Below are positions 56,258-61,643 of a DNA stretch of 64,000 nt, piece after piece. The notes below the pieces were generated by a model. The model was given only the letters and a program-made list of their open reading frames with translations, had not been told where the DNA came from and did not search any database. The stretch is taken from NCBI RefSeq assembly GCF_000027125.1, contig NC_017626.1; one strand, given 5' to 3'. The DNA is from Escherichia coli 042 (lineage in GTDB: Bacteria > Pseudomonadota > Gammaproteobacteria > Enterobacterales > Enterobacteriaceae). The position numbers were made by a program, and so were the translations under genes. Position 1 is the stretch's first letter. Each line of letters opens with the position of its first letter.

Positions 56258-57490
56258 TTATGCCGCCAGCACGCGGTTGCGTCCATCATTTTTCGCCCGA
56301 TACAAAGCATCATCAACGCGTTTAAACAGTTCATCGATGCTTTCATTTCCTTCGTGATGCGCCACACCAATGCTGACGGTAAAGCGTGGTAAGCCCGAAA
56401 TACTCACTTTTGCCACGCTTACGCGGATAGTTTCAGCCAGCGAAAGCGCGGTATCCAGTGGGGTTCTTGGTAGCAATAAGACAAACTCTTCGCCTCCCCA
56501 ACGAAACACCAAATCGCCTTTGCGAGCGCAACTTTCGAGGGGGCGGGCGAGGGCGCATAACACCTCATCACCTTTAGAATGCCCATAGAGATCGTTAATG
56601 TGTTTAAAACGATCGGTGTCGATGAGCAATAAGCTGTAATCCTGAGCGATGGCGAGGTGCTGCATTTGGCCTGGCTCGGTAATGTGGTAAAACTGTCGCC
56701 GATTCAGTAATCCGGTCATCGCGTCATGGTGGGCAGCATGTTCCAGCTGCTCCTCCAGCCGTTTTTGCTCAGTAATATCATGCACAATACATAACATGAG
56801 CTTGTCGCCATAAATTTCAATCGGCCCGGCATAGGTCTGCACATGACGAGTCGAACCATCCGCCAGTTTATGAACAAAATTCAAAGGCTTATGGCCACCG
56901 GGTAAATGCGAAATTTCATGCATGATAGGCATGACGCGTCGCCCGAGCATATTTATTTCCCAGGTATGTTTCTGGCACATCGTTTCATGGTTATAACCAT
57001 AGAAATTGAGCGCGGCGAGGTTAGCATCGACGATTTGTCCATCTCGTGACGGGTCAATCAACAACATTGGTGCAGAGTTAGTCAGAAAAAAGCGCGCATA
57101 AAAACCTTGTTTTTTGCGCTGATAATTTGCCGAGCGACTGGCTTTTAAACCCAGCGTTGCCGGTGCTTCGATACCTTCGAAAATAATCACCGGTTCTGCT
57201 TCTGTCAGCTTTCGCAAAACAAGCCGACAGCTCAATGCTGTTTCCTCTTCATTGCGCTGAACGGTGAGGATTTCGATAATATCGTGTTGGTTTTGCAGAT
57301 CGGAGAGGTATTTTGGCAGTTCTTTTTGTGAGGAGACGGAATAGGGACCGGTTCGTAGCTGACTAAACGTGAGGTCTTGCATCAACAGTCGCGCCGCGCT
57401 ATTGGCATAAATTAACTGTTCCTCAAAGGGCGAAACGATCCAGACAGGACTGGTGAGTAAGTCCAGGGTATTGAAGTTGTGCGTAATCAT
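56258..57490 (-). CDS. dgcM: Diguanylate cyclase DgcM (YdaM), PAS-PAS-GGDEF
   Basis: 410 aa from MITHNFNTLDLL...; GGEEF active-site motif (RWGGEEFVLL). Confidence 0.9.
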   Translation of the reverse strand: MITHNFNTLDLLTSPVWIVSPFEEQLIYANSAARLLMQDLTFSQLRTGPYSVSSQKELPKYLSDLQNQHDIIEILTVQRNEEETALSCRLVLRKLTEAEPVIIFEGIEAPATLGLKASRSANYQRKKQGFYARFFLTNSAPMLLIDPSRDGQIVDANLAALNFYGYNHETMCQKHTWEINMLGRRVMPIMHEISHLPGGHKPLNFVHKLADGSTRHVQTYAGPIEIYGDKLMLCIVHDITEQKRLEEQLEHAAHHDAMTGLLNRRQFYHITEPGQMQHLAIAQDYSLLLIDTDRFKHINDLYGHSKGDEVLCALARPLESCARKGDLVFRWGGEEFVLLLPRTPLDTALSLAETIRVSVAKVSISGLPRFTVSIGVAHHEGNESIDELFKRVDDALYRAKNDGRNRVLAA

Positions 57491-57723
57491 TGAGATCCCG
57501 TTATTTTTATCAATTTTTGTTGCTATCCGATCGCAAAAAAGCCACGTCATATGATCAGATAATTCTGATAATGATAGACGCTATTTAACACTTCACACGG
57601 TTTGTATACGGAAAAGCATTTTGCTTTTTGTATTCAATTTAGACAGAATTTTATTAATCATTTCAGGGTAATGGGGTGATGAGATGTTGCGTAACAGGGC
57701 CAGAAGGCTAGACTACAAAATAA

Positions 57724-58728
<1,005 letters not shown>

Positions 58729-58773
58729 CAAAAGCAATTTTCCCGGCTGTCTGTATACAAAAACGCCGCAAAG

Positions 58774-58787
58774 TTTGAGCGAAGTCA
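58774..58787. promoter_or_regulatory. FNR box driving fnrS
   Basis: TTGAGcgaaGTCAA about 40 bp upstream of the FnrS 5' end. Confidence 0.65.
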
Positions 58788-58823
58788 ATAAACTCTCTAC
58801 CCATTCAGGGCAATATCTCTCTT

Positions 58824-58950
58824 GCAGGTGAATGCAACGTCAAGCGATGGGCGTTGCGCTCCATATTGTCTTACTTCCTTTTTTGAATTACTGCATAGCA
58901 CAATTGATTCGTACGACGCCGACTTTGATGAGTCGGCTTTTTTTTGCCTG
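58824..58950 (+). ncRNA. fnrS: FNR-activated Hfq-dependent small RNA FnrS
   Basis: Sequence matches my recollection of FnrS (gcaggtgaatgcaacgtcaagcgatgggcgttgcgctccatattgtcttacttcc...) and ends in the terminator gacgccgactttgatgagtcggcttttttt; lies between zntB and dbpA. Confidence 0.85.
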
Positions 58951-59002
58951 TTATTTATCAGCGTCTACCCTTTAAGAGTCCACCCAATGACCGGAGGGAA
59001 AT

Positions 59003-59176
59003 ATGACGACACTTATTTATTTGCAAATTCCTGTCCCTGAACCGATTCCTGGCGATCCTGTTCCAGTGCCCGATCCGATCCCTCGCCCGCAACCCATGCC
59101 TGACCCACCACCCGACGAAGAACCGATTAAATTGTCGCATCGTGAGCGTAGATCTGCGAGGATACGCGCCTGCTAA
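59003..59176 (+). CDS. Short proline-rich ORF (57 aa), possible small protein
   Basis: ATG 7 bp after a GGAGGG Shine-Dalgarno; product MTTLIYLQIPVPEPIPGDPVPVPDPIPRPQPMPDPPPDEEPIKLSHRERRSARIRAC; too short to appear in the ORF track. Confidence 0.35.
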   Translation: MTTLIYLQIPVPEPIPGDPVPVPDPIPRPQPMPDPPPDEEPIKLSHRERRSARIRAC

Positions 59177-59205
59177 CTTTGCGTCGATGACCACGAGAAT
59201 AGATT

Positions 59206-60579
59206 GTGACCGCTTTTTCTACCCTGAATGTTTTGCCTCCTGCCCAACTCACGAACCTTAATGAGTTGGGTTATTTAACCATGACGCCGGTGCAGGCCGC
59301 CGCGCTTCCGGCGATCCTTGCCGGAAAAGATGTTCGCGTGCAGGCGAAAACCGGCAGCGGCAAAACGGCGGCTTTTGGCCTCGGCTTGTTACAGCAAATT
59401 GATGCGTCGCTATTTCAAACCCAGGCTTTAGTGCTGTGTCCTACGCGTGAACTGGCGGATCAGGTGGCAGGTGAATTGCGTCGGCTGGCGCGTTTTCTAC
59501 CAAATACCAAAATTTTGACGTTGTGCGGTGGTCAACCGTTCGGTATGCAGCGTGATTCGTTGCAACATGCGCCGCATATTATCGTGGCAACGCCGGGCCG
59601 TTTGTTGGATCATCTGCAAAAAGGCACGGTATCACTGGATGCGTTGAATACGCTGGTGATGGATGAGGCCGACCGCATGCTGGATATGGGATTTAGCGAT
59701 GCCATTGATGATGTCATCCGTTTTGCGCCAGCATCTCGACAGACGCTTCTGTTTTCGGCAACCTGGCCGGAAGCCATCGCCGCAATCAGCGGACGAGTGC
59801 AACGCGATCCTTTAGCGATTGAAATTGACTCAACAGATGCTCTGCCACCTATTGAACAACAATTTTATGAGACATCCAGCAAAGGCAAAATTCCGTTGTT
59901 GCAACGGTTATTAAGTTTGCATCAGCCATCCTCTTGCGTGGTGTTTTGCAATACCAAAAAAGATTGCCAGGCTGTCTGCGACGCGCTGAATGAAGTAGGG
60001 CAAAGTGCATTGTCGTTACACGGCAATCTGGAGCAACGTGATCGCGATCAGACCCTGGTACGTTTTGCTAACGGTAGCGCCCGTGTACTGGTTGCGACTG
60101 ATGTTGCTGCGCGAGGTCTGGATATTAAATCGCTTGAGCTGGTGGTGAACTTTGAGCTGGCGTGGGATCCTGAAGTTCATGTACATCGCATCGGTCGTAC
60201 AGCGCGTGCAGGAAATAGCGGTCTGGCGATCAGTTTCTGTGCTCCGGAAGAAGCACAGCGGGCCAATATCATTTCTGACATGTTGCAGATAAAACTTAAC
60301 TGGCAAACGCCGCCAGTTAATAGTTCCATTGTGCCGCTGGAAGCCGAAATGGCAACGTTATGTATCGATGGCGGGAAAAAAGCCAAAATGCGCCCGGGTG
60401 ATGTATTAGGTGCGCTGACAGGAGATATCGGGCTTGATGGCGCAGATATTGGCAAAATCGCCGTGCATCCGGCGCATGTCTATGTCGCGGTGCGTCAGGC
60501 TGTTGCTCATAAAGCATGGAAACAGTTACAGGGCGGGAAGATTAAAGGAAAAACGTGCCGGGTGCGGTTATTAAAATAA
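59206..60579 (+). CDS. dbpA: ATP-dependent RNA helicase DbpA (DEAD-box)
   Basis: 457 aa; Q-motif, Walker A (AKTGSGKTAAF), DEAD, SAT, HRIGRTAR. Confidence 0.95.
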   Translation: MTAFSTLNVLPPAQLTNLNELGYLTMTPVQAAALPAILAGKDVRVQAKTGSGKTAAFGLGLLQQIDASLFQTQALVLCPTRELADQVAGELRRLARFLPNTKILTLCGGQPFGMQRDSLQHAPHIIVATPGRLLDHLQKGTVSLDALNTLVMDEADRMLDMGFSDAIDDVIRFAPASRQTLLFSATWPEAIAAISGRVQRDPLAIEIDSTDALPPIEQQFYETSSKGKIPLLQRLLSLHQPSSCVVFCNTKKDCQAVCDALNEVGQSALSLHGNLEQRDRDQTLVRFANGSARVLVATDVAARGLDIKSLELVVNFELAWDPEVHVHRIGRTARAGNSGLAISFCAPEEAQRANIISDMLQIKLNWQTPPVNSSIVPLEAEMATLCIDGGKKAKMRPGDVLGALTGDIGLDGADIGKIAVHPAHVYVAVRQAVAHKAWKQLQGGKIKGKTCRVRLLK

Positions 60580-60707
60580 TGAAATGTTGAATCGCAGGGT
60601 GCAAGAGTAAACATCTTCTTCGGGATTGCCGGATGCGACGCTGGCCGCGTCTTCTCCGGCCTCCATAAGAGTAGCCCGATAAGCTTGCGCATCGGGCGCT
60701 ATCCGGG

Positions 60708-61643
60708 TTATTTCACTTCAACCACATTCAGTCGTAACTCATCCAACTGATTTTCATCTTCTTCAGGCTGCCAACCCGCCGGTTGTAGAGGGATCTCTTC
60801 GCGATCAAACGCCAGATCACCCCCGTTAACCACTTCAGAACCGTGGGTAATGCCTTTGAAATCGAACAGGTTGGTATCGCACAGATGCGACGGCACCACA
60901 TTCTGCATCGCGCTGAACATCGTCTCGATACGCCCCGGATAACGTTTATCCCAGTCACGCAACATGTCAGCAATCACCTGACGTTGCAGGTTAGGCTGTG
61001 AACCGCACAGGTTGCACGGAATAATCGGGAACGCTTTTGCATCGGCAAAGCGCTGAATATCTTTCTCGCGGCAGTAGGCCAGCGGGCGAATCACGATATG
61101 TTTGCCATCATCGCTCATCAGTTTCGGAGGCATACCTTTCATCTTGCCGCCGTAGAACATATTTAAGAACAACGTTTGCAGGATATCGTCACGATGGTGA
61201 CCCAGCGCGATCTTCGTCGCTCCCAGTTCCGTTGCGGTACGATAAAGGATACCGCGACGAAGACGAGAACACAGTGAGCAAGTGGTTTTGCCCTCCGGAA
61301 TCTTCTCTTTCACGATACCGTAAGTGTTCTCTTCCACAATCTTGTACTCAACGCCCAGCTTTTCAAGATACTCGGGCAGAACGTGTTCCGGGAAGCCCGG
61401 TTGTTTTTGATCGAGGTTGACAGCCACCAGCGAAAAATTGATTGGCGCGCTTTGCTGCAAATTGCGCAGAATTTCCAGCATGGTATAGCTGTCTTTACCC
61501 CCGGAGAGGCAAACCATGATGCGATCGCCTTCTTCAATCATATTGAAGTCAGCAATGGCTTCGCCCACGTTACGACGCAGACGTTTTTGTAATTTGTTCA
61601 GGTTGTATATCTCTTTCTTCGTATTCTTTTGATTTTCTTGCAT
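60708..61643 (-). CDS. ttcA: tRNA 2-thiocytidine synthase TtcA
   Basis: 311 aa; PP-loop (SGGKDS) and CxxC motifs. Confidence 0.92.

Follow-up and report, generated by a model that had tools for sequence, protein, structure and literature searches.

Two catalogued genes between zntB and dbpA

The window analysed here is a stretch of 64,000 nucleotides from Escherichia coli 042 (contig NC_017626.1), and the interval of interest within it holds two separate, catalogued E. coli genes, the gene of the oxygen-regulated small RNA FnrS and the small-protein gene ynaL (Table 1). The elements of both far exceed what chance would produce, and both genes are real; since FnrS and YnaL have already been described, neither is new. 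YnaL in particular has been an annotated and experimentally detected small protein since 2018, with a Pfam family of its own, and as such has little discovery value. What our comparative analysis adds is a promoter-like element of ynaL, two C-terminal forms of its product, and an apparent overlap of the YnaL tail with DNA associated with dbpA.

Table 1. Features of the fnrS-ynaL-dbpA interval, in window positions.
Feature	Position	Strand	Basis
FNR box TTGAGcgaaGTCAA	58775..58788	+	read in sequence; centre -42.5 from FnrS 5' end
fnrS sRNA gene, including intrinsic terminator	58824..58945	+	Rfam RF01796, terminator scan
Predicted ynaL promoter	58944..58971	+	comparative conservation
Shine-Dalgarno GGAGGG of ynaL	58993..58998	+	read in sequence
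ynaL coding sequence, 57 aa (WP_001296046.1)	59003..59176	+	ORF list, RefSeq, PF23677, K-12 identity
Alternating X-Pro core P16-I42 (PGDPVPVPDPIPRPQPMPDPPPDEEPI)	59048..59128	+	alignments A1, A2; codon-position diversity
Block 1 CCGATTAAATTGTCGC, codons P41-H46	59123..59138	+	codon-position diversity
Unconstrained spacer, codons R47-E48-R49	59141..59149	+	codon-position diversity, in-frame stops
Block 2 AGATCTGCGAGGATACGCGCC, codons R50-A56, putative dbpA core promoter	59150..59170	+	comparative conservation
dbpA, ATP-dependent RNA helicase	59206..60579	+	ORF list, annotation

Upstream of fnrS lies zntB. The Rfam model RF01796 matches positions 58824-58941 over its full length (model positions 1-119 of 119; 134.8 bits versus a gathering score of 60, E = 2.8e-25), which places the 5' end of FnrS at 58824. 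Using a terminator scan, we found a hairpin at 58918-58937 followed by a T8 run at 58938-58945, a strong terminator with an 8-bp GC-rich stem. FnrS and its terminator had been named in a first-pass annotation of this DNA and are borne out by the full-length match and the scan; the FNR box claimed there is also present, beginning one base further to the right. The distance of -42.5 is the position tabulated for the FNR site of fnrS in a ChIP-seq-based mapping (Table 1 of Myers et al. 2013, PMC3688515). TTGAGcgaaGTCAA is a site of the TTGAT-N4-ATCAA type near -41.5/-42.5, as in class II FNR promoters, and the FNR consensus tTGAgCgA.aTCAA recurs at the same offset in 121 loci, 89 of which carry TTGA-N6-TCAA. 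That fnrS depends on FNR is known from the literature, FnrS reportedly having been characterised since 2010 by Durand and Storz and by Boysen and colleagues.

The second gene is annotated by RefSeq as 'proline-rich small protein YnaL', an annotation present in 5392 of the 5426 complete E. coli genomes, and a profile search matched its product to Pfam PF23677 (YnaL) over residues 1-57 of 57 (E = 2.2e-40). The family is a narrow one: a set of 1.84 billion proteins contains 43 representatives of it. YnaL of E. coli 042 has the same sequence as the SPA-tagged protein of K-12, which was seen by immunoblot of the chromosomal SPA tag in LB cultures (VanOrsdel 2018, PMC6001520). The same study found ynaL to be positive in tetracycline ribosome profiling and suggested a possible operon (PMC6001520). 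Our literature searches (full text; ynaL with dbpA, fnrS or 'small protein'; peptide sequence) found this one report on YnaL.

The ynaL ATG lies 57 nt past the T-run of fnrS. As the first-pass annotation had claimed, a GGAGGG precedes an ATG that opens a proline-rich frame of 57 codons; 16 of the residues are proline, which occupies every second position from 10 to 37, and the DPPPD motif is contained in the protein. Of 71 loci, 69 have four or more consecutive bases of AGGAGG at 5-17 nt ahead of the ATG and two have a 3-base match; the start codon of each locus was picked partly by this very Shine-Dalgarno score, and ATG was chosen in all 71.

The predicted ynaL promoter consists of a -35-like TTGCCT (58944-58949), which overlaps the end of the fnrS U-tract, a 16-nt spacer and a -10-like C-TACCCT (hexamer 58966-58971), with transcription predicted to start at about 58977-58979. 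The pattern C-TAnnCT is found 33-45 nt upstream of the ynaL ATG in 69 of 71 loci versus 2.5 expected from shuffles, and in one locus (L074) the -10-like element remains beside ynaL despite a 1.1-kb insertion between ynaL and fnrS. We infer that ynaL is transcribed from a promoter of its own that abuts the fnrS terminator. A simple scan for sigma-70 promoters called none within 58700-59300, and neither this region nor dbpA has an entry in the text of the Cappable-seq and SMRT-Cappable-seq supplements. Comparative conservation is the sole basis of both promoter proposals, that for ynaL and that for dbpA described below. The predicted start sites correspond to about 1409282-1409284 (ynaL) and 1409475-1409477 (dbpA) in K-12, where the offset, window minus K-12, is -1350305 as taken from the ynaL start. 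A minus-strand frame of 78 aa (58958-59194) was considered and rejected: its first codon positions fall on variable third positions of the plus strand, and the frame thus lacks conservation at the protein level.

Selection on the YnaL core and the context of its gene

For comparison, 120 Enterobacterales loci were retrieved via fnrS, and a homologous ORF was present at the same place in 71 fnrS loci from other species. Form A (33 species) is the E. coli type, with dbpA directly downstream; Form B ends in ...PIIDPPPH and has dbpA elsewhere. The adjacency of fnrS and ynaL is kept across families, with a gap of 49-67 nt, and ynaL adjoins fnrS even where dbpA sits elsewhere. In Form B, of which 39 loci from many genera were collected, a terminator and then convergent ttcA come after the ORF. 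Ancestrally, ynaL is a stand-alone unit between fnrS and convergent ttcA, and it is fnrS/zntB, with ttcA on the downstream side, and not dbpA that research on YnaL can regard as its conserved genomic partner.

Diversity at the first, second and third codon positions of the X-Pro core was 0.08/0.05/0.46 in the 33 Form A species and 0.15/0.10/0.63 across the 71 loci of all forms, third positions being 4-9 times as diverse as first and second positions in these sets. The Form B C-terminus PIIDPPPH is protein-constrained too (0.11/0.05/0.55). Constraint at the protein level extends to the non-proline residues I26, Q30, D34 and D38, and selection is residue-specific beyond the Pro codons. The core, approximately residues 16-42, is under protein-level purifying selection in Enterobacteriaceae, Erwiniaceae and Sodalis-like bacteria. 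The first-pass annotation had left a choice between a genuine small protein and a regulatory leader, and the former is upheld by detection of the SPA-tagged product, by ribosome profiling and by purifying selection on the frame. A lack of ribosome footprints and of purifying selection had been named there as grounds for refutation; since published tetracycline profiling is positive and codon-position diversity is skewed, both are contradicted. For research on YnaL, the unit to be regarded as functional is the 27-residue acidic X-Pro core and not the N-terminus or the basic tail.

The YnaL core peptide reads SDPVPTDPVPVPDPIPRPQPMPDPPPDEE. AlphaFold2 modelled the core as an extended chain without secondary structure (pLDDT 90-94; pTM 0.22), and no relative of solved structure was found at E <= 1. 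The model suggests that YnaL has no globular fold and forms an extended, acidic rod resembling polyproline II. Judging from composition and the pattern of selection, the most likely role of the conserved core is that of a ligand which binds a partner in trans.

The DPPPD motif (residues 34-38, PPP codons at 59105-59113) is near-invariant in Form A; alignment A1 shows no variation at P35 and P37 and keeps P36 in at least 90%. DPPPD qualifies as a strong stalling motif (PPP, DPP or PPD), and Form B has a C-terminal DPPPH. Such motifs were reportedly ranked by strength in Peil 2013 and Woolstenhulme 2015. As the ribosome must pass DPPPD, translation of YnaL should need EF-P, and this dependence is plausible; the main efp profiling studies predate the ynaL annotation.

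The 3' end of ynaL and the DNA upstream of dbpA

The GTG start of dbpA lies 29 nt beyond the ynaL stop, and the terminator scan found no terminator between them. Because none separates the two genes in E. coli, read-through co-transcription of ynaL and dbpA with some coupling is possible in this species.

Wherever dbpA follows ynaL, Block 1 is almost invariant at all codon positions, with a third-position diversity of 0-0.17. Kluyvera has lost the Pro-rich core and kept Block 1, and a locus without dbpA (L035) has a diverged homologue of Block 1 that is translated and encodes PYKLSR. Block 1 may form the upstream portion of the dbpA promoter; as its copy is translated in a locus that lacks dbpA, the line between ancestral ynaL and dbpA-associated DNA can be drawn only approximately. 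Over L44-R50 diversity is nearly equal at the three codon positions (0.29/0.28/0.24). In-frame stops fall within the R47-R49 spacer in 7 of the 33 Form A species (at codon 47 in Enterobacter cloacae and Kosakonia), and the tail DNA behind the stop is still conserved; RSARIRAC is in frame in 26 of the 33.

Block 2, which has a third-position diversity of 0.02 in Form A, can be divided into a putative extended -10 TG (59155-59156), a hexamer GAGGAT (59158-59163) and a GC-rich discriminator (59164-59170), with a predicted dbpA transcription start at about 59170-59172. The Form A hexamer is a poor match to TATAAT. Block 2 is kept in Kluyvera, which has no ynaL, and it aligns with TCTGCTAnAnT plus (A)CGCGCC upstream of dbpA in seven species whose dbpA lies away from ynaL, a motif of the form TGn-TAnAnT with a GC-rich stretch after it. 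TGCGAGGATACGCGC itself recurs in Franconibacter. Block 2 is most likely the dbpA promoter, with an extended -10 and a GC-rich discriminator. The candidate dbpA promoter sequence, TGCGAGGAT, is the counterpart of TACCCT for ynaL. The idea that the frozen nucleotides of the tail and the dbpA leader form a conserved RNA element was rejected, and a DNA-level signal preferred: across 22 species, RNAalifold on the stretch between Block 1 and dbpA +15 gave -4.35 kcal/mol and zero pairs with compensatory changes, and hence no covariation.

On balance, we think that the last 8-11 codons of E. coli YnaL probably are dbpA promoter, read through after dbpA moved beside ynaL. If so, the YnaL tail would offer a clean example in nature of how a coding sequence can overprint the promoter of its neighbour. 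As these codons would run through dbpA DNA, RSARIRAC would thus be a by-product fixed at the DNA level. The basic tail to which the first-pass annotation had drawn attention is present in the ORF but is not a conserved protein feature, given that its third positions are frozen and that it lies behind a stop in 7 of the 33 species. Tagging or deleting the 3' end of ynaL in E. coli is likely to hit the predicted dbpA promoter, so that a phenotype seen with such a construct may stem from dbpA.

Proposed arrangement, alternatives and known systems

We are confident that the interval is best explained by fnrS together with a separate, real coding gene, ynaL, whose core is selected and whose tail is a by-product of dbpA DNA, with no dedicated leader for dbpA. 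In this arrangement fnrS encodes the FNR-activated sRNA of the Hfq type; its FNR site at -42.5 is of class II, and its terminator is intrinsic. Next to that terminator, ynaL, a real gene for a proline-rich protein of 57 residues with a conserved -10-like element and a strong Shine-Dalgarno sequence, would be transcribed from its own promoter. Translation through DPPPD would need EF-P, and the rod-like acidic core would then serve in trans as a ligand. In the lineage of Escherichia, Salmonella, Citrobacter, Enterobacter and Klebsiella, dbpA lies directly downstream, and the last 8-11 codons would cross its likely extended -10 promoter.

Were ynaL instead a cis-acting leader comparable to mgtP or mgtL, stalling at Pro/PPP codons, sensitive to EF-P or prolyl-tRNA, would control dbpA on a ynaL-dbpA transcript. 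The near-invariance of DPPPD in Form A, the missing terminator, the mere 29 nt from the ynaL stop to the dbpA GTG and the possible operon proposed by VanOrsdel 2018 (PMC6001520) would all fit such a role. However, the homologous ORF is older than its adjacency to dbpA, and where dbpA is elsewhere ynaL is followed by a terminator and convergent ttcA, which makes it doubtful that ynaL was ancestrally a leader of dbpA. The constraint on I26, Q30, D34 and D38 also tells against it, as does the position of the dbpA-associated promoter-like motif inside ynaL, downstream of PPP. The ynaL stop shifts by about 30 nt among species, and its spacing from the dbpA start is unconserved; Kluyvera deleted ynaL and kept the blocks upstream of dbpA. 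Conserved 5'-leader linkage is thus absent from Form B and Kluyvera, and RNAalifold on 22 species gave no alternative RNA structure or covariation between ynaL and dbpA. We consider a leader function highly improbable, and the regulatory leader offered by the first-pass annotation finds no support: Form B has no downstream gene to regulate, selection is residue-specific, the 3' end holds a promoter-like motif, and the stop-dbpA distance is unconserved. It is just as improbable that YnaL synthesis reads out EF-P or prolyl-tRNA capacity and that DPPPD stalling on ynaL-dbpA read-through transcripts tunes DbpA, a helicase of 50S subunit assembly; if true, this would be a feedback between translation capacity and ribosome biogenesis. 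The overprinting of the dbpA promoter by ynaL, which we hold to be probable, has better support than this feedback.

The suggestion that the whole 57-residue protein is the functional unit, with its basic tail under dual constraint from the protein and from the overlapping dbpA signal, appears unlikely to us. Fusion of the SPA tag to the 3' end of the ORF means that K-12 translates the tail (PMC6001520), and RSARIRAC is in frame in most Form A species. Against this, the seven species with early stops still conserve the tail DNA, the C-terminus of Form B is unrelated, and frozen third positions are not produced by protein selection alone. It is highly improbable, too, that fnrS and ynaL form one FNR-driven unit, through terminator read-through or FnrS base pairing, with YnaL as part of the anaerobic response. 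Their adjacency across families and the overlap of the putative ynaL -35 with the end of the fnrS U-tract are consistent with such a unit, but YnaL-SPA is present in ordinary LB cultures (PMC6001520), the fnrS terminator is strong, and the conserved, separate -10-like element stayed with ynaL after the 1.1-kb insertion. Pairing of FnrS with ynaL was rejected, as its duplex energy is unremarkable: RNAduplex against ynaL -40 to +30 gave -26.1 kcal/mol, which ranks at the 67th percentile when 52 gene starts of the window serve as controls.

Compared with known systems, the ORF does not differ from the YnaL family (same 57-aa sequence, same place between fnrS and dbpA, full-length HMM match), nor does the locus differ from the FnrS family (full-length covariance-model match, FNR site at -42.5, intrinsic terminator, position downstream of zntB). 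With the proline-rich spacer of TonB, YnaL shares alternating X-Pro repeats and a predicted extended, rigid rod resembling polyproline II, whereas it has no membrane anchor or C-terminal domain, is acidic throughout the repeat and stands alone at 45-60 residues. Homology to TonB was rejected, the matches being compositional only (Pfam PF16031, E = 0.75; NCBIfam NF008084, 20.8 bits versus a cut-off of 315). A further likeness is to proline-rich antimicrobial peptides, which are also short and of P-x-P type: the PRP-like centre reads IPRPQP in YnaL and IPQPRP in apidaecin. Apidaecin, oncocin and Bac7 are strongly cationic, secreted by animals and active in the ribosomal exit tunnel or on DnaK, whereas the YnaL core is acidic. 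The Arg of the PRP-like centre varies in YnaL (R/K/Q/T/H/S), and no homology of YnaL to proline-rich antimicrobial peptides was detectable, leaving the resemblance as a lead only. Consecutive Pro codons, at a translation speed that should depend on EF-P and prolyl-tRNA, connect YnaL with mgtP (the mgtCBR leader) and mgtL (the mgtA leader) of Salmonella and with the EF-P-dependent CadC. Unlike mgtP and mgtL, ynaL ancestrally has no downstream gene and shows no alternative leader RNA structures; its product accumulates as a stable protein under residue-specific selection.

The small ORF between fnrS and dbpA

The proline-rich ORF that the first-pass annotation had placed downstream of FnrS is ynaL in the RefSeq annotation ('proline-rich small protein YnaL', WP_001296046.1), and its product aligned end to end with Pfam PF23677 (YnaL; E = 2.2e-40). 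Its translation gave exactly the 57 residues quoted in that annotation, and the GGAGGG Shine-Dalgarno precedes its ATG as described. The identical sequence has been placed between fnrS and dbpA in K-12 (1409308-1409481), and YnaL with a chromosomal SPA tag was seen by immunoblot in LB cultures (VanOrsdel et al. 2018, PMC6001520). Since the tagged protein was detected, the question of whether the ORF is expressed had already been answered, and the finding of ynaL is itself already known; our full-text search found no further paper on YnaL.

The upstream features were likewise confirmed. Rfam RF01796 matched the proposed FnrS sRNA across the entire model (134.8 bits versus a gathering score of 60, E = 2.8e-25), and a terminator scan gave a hairpin followed by a T8 run. 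The FNR box, TTGAGcgaaGTCAA, is present but starts one base to the right of where it had been put. Taking the FnrS 5' end from the Rfam match, the box is centred at -42.5, a position also tabulated from FNR ChIP-seq (Myers 2013, PMC3688515), and fnrS is FNR-activated according to the literature. A tTGAgCgA.aTCAA-type box occurs at the same offset from fnrS in the 121 loci collected. The 58700-59300 interval is 100% identical to that of strain Ecol_316 and was found in 5392 of 5426 complete E. coli genomes.

Features of the zntB-ttcA region and its flanks (window positions)
Feature	Position	Strand	Source or sequence
dgcM	56258-57550	-	mechanical ORF, RefSeq
ynaN ORF	57684-57731	+	RefSeq 'protein YnaN'
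zntB	57745-58728	+	ORF list, annotation
FNR box	58775-58788		TTGAGcgaaGTCAA
fnrS	58824-~58945	+	gene order in ORF list/annotation
RF01796 match	58824-58941		Rfam
fnrS terminator hairpin	58918-58937		terminator scan
T8 run	58938-58945		terminator scan
C-TAnnCT element	58966-58971		
Shine-Dalgarno	58993-58998		GGAGGG
ynaL	59003-59176	+	ORF list, annotation
Block 1	59123-59138	+	CCGATTAAA[A/T]TGTCGC
Block 2	59150-59170	+	AGATCTG[C/A]GAGGATACGCGCC
R50, R53, I54 codons	59150-59164		AGA, AGG, ATA
dbpA (GTG start)	59206-60579	+	ORF list, annotation
dbpA-ttcA hairpin	60624-60660	+	sub-threshold Rfam naRNA4
ttcA	60708-61643	-	ORF list, annotation
Rac integrase	beyond ttcA	-	ORF list, annotation

Three side observations concern the flanking genes. 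The 15-codon ynaN ORF lies 13 nt upstream of the GTG of zntB and may be a leader ORF for this zinc transporter gene. The GC-rich, REP-like hairpin between the convergent dbpA and ttcA (22.7 bits versus 59.5 for naRNA4) is probably a bidirectional terminator. The dgcM ORF, at 430 codons from the first ATG versus 410 in RefSeq, differs merely by an upstream in-frame start.

Two C-terminal forms and a protein-constrained core

As loci from 120 Enterobacterales species were fetched via the conserved FnrS pattern and not via the ORF, sampling was unbiased with respect to the ORF; each locus was oriented, and zntB, ynaL-like ORFs, dbpA and ttcA were then located. A ynaL-like ORF was found in most Enterobacteriaceae and Erwiniaceae and in Sodalis-like genera, and a more diverged one in Pectobacterium and Mangrovibacter. 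In most loci it starts 49-67 nt past the T-run of fnrS; two carry insertions. None was found in the retrieved loci of Serratia, Yersinia, Rahnella, Rouxiella, Hafnia, Edwardsiella, Dickeya, Brenneria, Lonsdalea, Photorhabdus, Arsenophonus, Kluyvera or Erwinia endophytica. The family is narrow: a profile run against 1.84 billion cluster representatives yielded only 43 clusters, almost all of them 43-135 residues long.

Protein alignment distinguished two C-terminal forms. Form A (...PDPPPDEEPIK[L/M]SHxxRRSARIRAC), with dbpA directly downstream, occurs in Escherichia, Salmonella, Citrobacter, Enterobacter, Klebsiella, Leclercia, Kosakonia and others. Form B (...PDPPxDPDPxPIIDPPPH[R/M]), found in Erwinia, Pantoea, Mixta, Pluralibacter, Cedecea, Phytobacter, Siccibacter, Franconibacter, Trabulsiella, Buttiauxella and others, is followed directly by a hairpin terminator and convergent ttcA, and dbpA lies past ttcA or elsewhere. 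Since outgroup families also carry Form B, the stand-alone order zntB> fnrS> ynaL> <ttcA is ancestral and adjacency to dbpA derived.

Three single loci call for comment. Enterobacter sp. BIGb0383 has a third C-terminal variant, ...PDPPPEEVPYKLSRV*, then a terminator and convergent ttcA, with neither dbpA nor the Form A element Block 2 at the ynaL 3' end; this suggests either a secondary loss of dbpA or a 'PxKLS' segment that was there before dbpA arrived. In Leclercia adecarboxylata NCTC13032, a frameshift upstream of ...PQPMPDPPPDEVPIK makes the N-terminal half read as unrelated residues, so that the gene is either a pseudogene or wrongly assembled. A record titled Martelella alba BGMRC 2031, an alphaproteobacterial name, holds a zntB-fnrS locus of enterobacterial type, and the Form B ORF in it is Sodalis-like; the assembly is probably misassigned or contaminated.

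Mean pairwise diversity at codon positions 1/2/3 was 0.15/0.10/0.63 over a 15-codon core of all forms (71 loci, 69 unique), 0.08/0.05/0.46 over D18-K43 of Form A (33 loci) and 0.11/0.05/0.55 over the Form B C-terminus PIIDPPPH (38 loci). Third-position diversity far above that at positions 1 and 2 marks the frame as translated and under purifying selection at the protein level. A 78-codon antisense ORF was ruled out, as its first codon positions would coincide with the variable sites. Besides the prolines, D18, I26, Q30, D34 and D38 are conserved; the N-terminal ~15 residues showed no conservation in the alignments.

AlphaFold2, run with a 50-sequence alignment, gave YnaL neither helix nor strand (pTM 0.22) but pLDDT values of 90-94 for residues 21-40, so that the model shows a chain predicted with confidence to be extended, rather than a fold. 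A search for a relative of solved structure found none, and matches to TonB were compositional only. The contexts DPP, PPP and PPD stall ribosomes strongly in the EF-P literature. Because DPPPD combines all three and Form B likewise retains a PPP (DPPPH), the EF-P dependence proposed from the consecutive prolines is a sound prediction.

The 3' end of ynaL as dbpA-associated DNA

The end of Form A ynaL behaves differently, being constrained as DNA. Blocks 1 and 2 hardly vary at any of the three codon positions, with third-position diversity of 0-0.17 in Block 1 and 0.02 from S51 to the stop (33 loci). The three-codon spacer between them varies equally at all positions and contains an in-frame stop in 7 of 33 species (...KLSHR* in Enterobacter cloacae; ...KMSR* in Kosakonia cowanii and Pseudescherichia), and the 'RSARIRAC' DNA is kept even 3' of these stops. 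In Kluyvera genomosp. 1 and 3, a ~145-nt deletion, ~110-230 nt past the fnrS pattern, removed the proline-rich core and left both blocks and dbpA in place; these species are natural ynaL knockouts in which the DNA upstream of dbpA survives. In seven species with dbpA away from ynaL, TCTGCTA(C/A)A(C/T)T followed by (A)CGCGCC lies 40-55 nt upstream of the dbpA GTG and aligns with Block 2; Franconibacter carries TGCGAGGATACGCGC itself. In sequence, TG-n-TAnAnT with a GC-rich stretch has the pattern of an extended -10 promoter whose discriminator is GC-rich. For the stretch running from Block 1 up to the start of dbpA, RNAalifold gave neither a conserved fold nor covariation.

On the strength of this invariance, the spacer stops, the Kluyvera deletion, the shared upstream motif and the lack of an RNA fold, we infer that Block 2 serves as core promoter of dbpA and predict a transcription start near 59170-59172. 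In E. coli, ynaL would then run on into this DNA over its final 8-11 codons. As for Block 1, Form A keeps it nearly unchanged and Kluyvera retains it; since a diverged copy encodes ...PYKLSRV* in the dbpA-less Enterobacter sp. BIGb0383, the boundary between ancestral ynaL and dbpA-associated DNA can be placed only approximately. AGA, AGG and ATA are among the rarest E. coli codons, and at R50, R53 and I54 they are invariant in 33 species. Constraint on promoter DNA, rather than translation, probably explains them; where translated, they would still slow ribosomes just ahead of the stop.

Expression of ynaL and the leader alternative

Of 71 loci, 69 have a C-TAnnCT element (TACCCT, TATGCT, TACGCT or TAAGCT) 33-45 nt ahead of the ynaL ATG, against 2.5 expected from shuffles; its T-A...T positions are fixed and its middle variable, like a -10 hexamer. 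The E. coli element is preceded, at a distance of 16 nt, by TTGCCT, which overlaps the end of the fnrS U-tract. A match to AGGAGG over at least four consecutive bases was found 5-17 nt before the chosen ATG, again in 69 of the 71 loci. Intestinirhabdus alba has an ORF-bearing insertion of ~1.1 kb between fnrS and ynaL, and C-TACGCT and the Shine-Dalgarno remain directly upstream of ynaL. A simple sigma-70 scan made no call at the element. Together with detection of YnaL-SPA in ordinary LB, the element, the Intestinirhabdus locus and the Shine-Dalgarno favour a predicted separate ynaL promoter over FNR-driven read-through from fnrS.

The first-pass annotation had offered a genuine small protein or a regulatory leader, and was half right. 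The immunoblot and the protein-level selection bear out the former. In E. coli-type genomes YnaL could serve as a leader peptide on read-through transcripts, but this is very unlikely: ynaL is ancestrally independent of dbpA, and Form B has its own terminator and convergent ttcA. As a small-protein gene, ynaL would be transcribed from its own promoter and translated with the help of EF-P, and the acidic, polyproline-II-like core of YnaL may act in trans on a partner; the dbpA promoter would lie inside ynaL. Set against what was known of ynaL, our comparative results are modest additions, and their main use is as a warning that changes made to ynaL at its 3' end probably affect dbpA as well.
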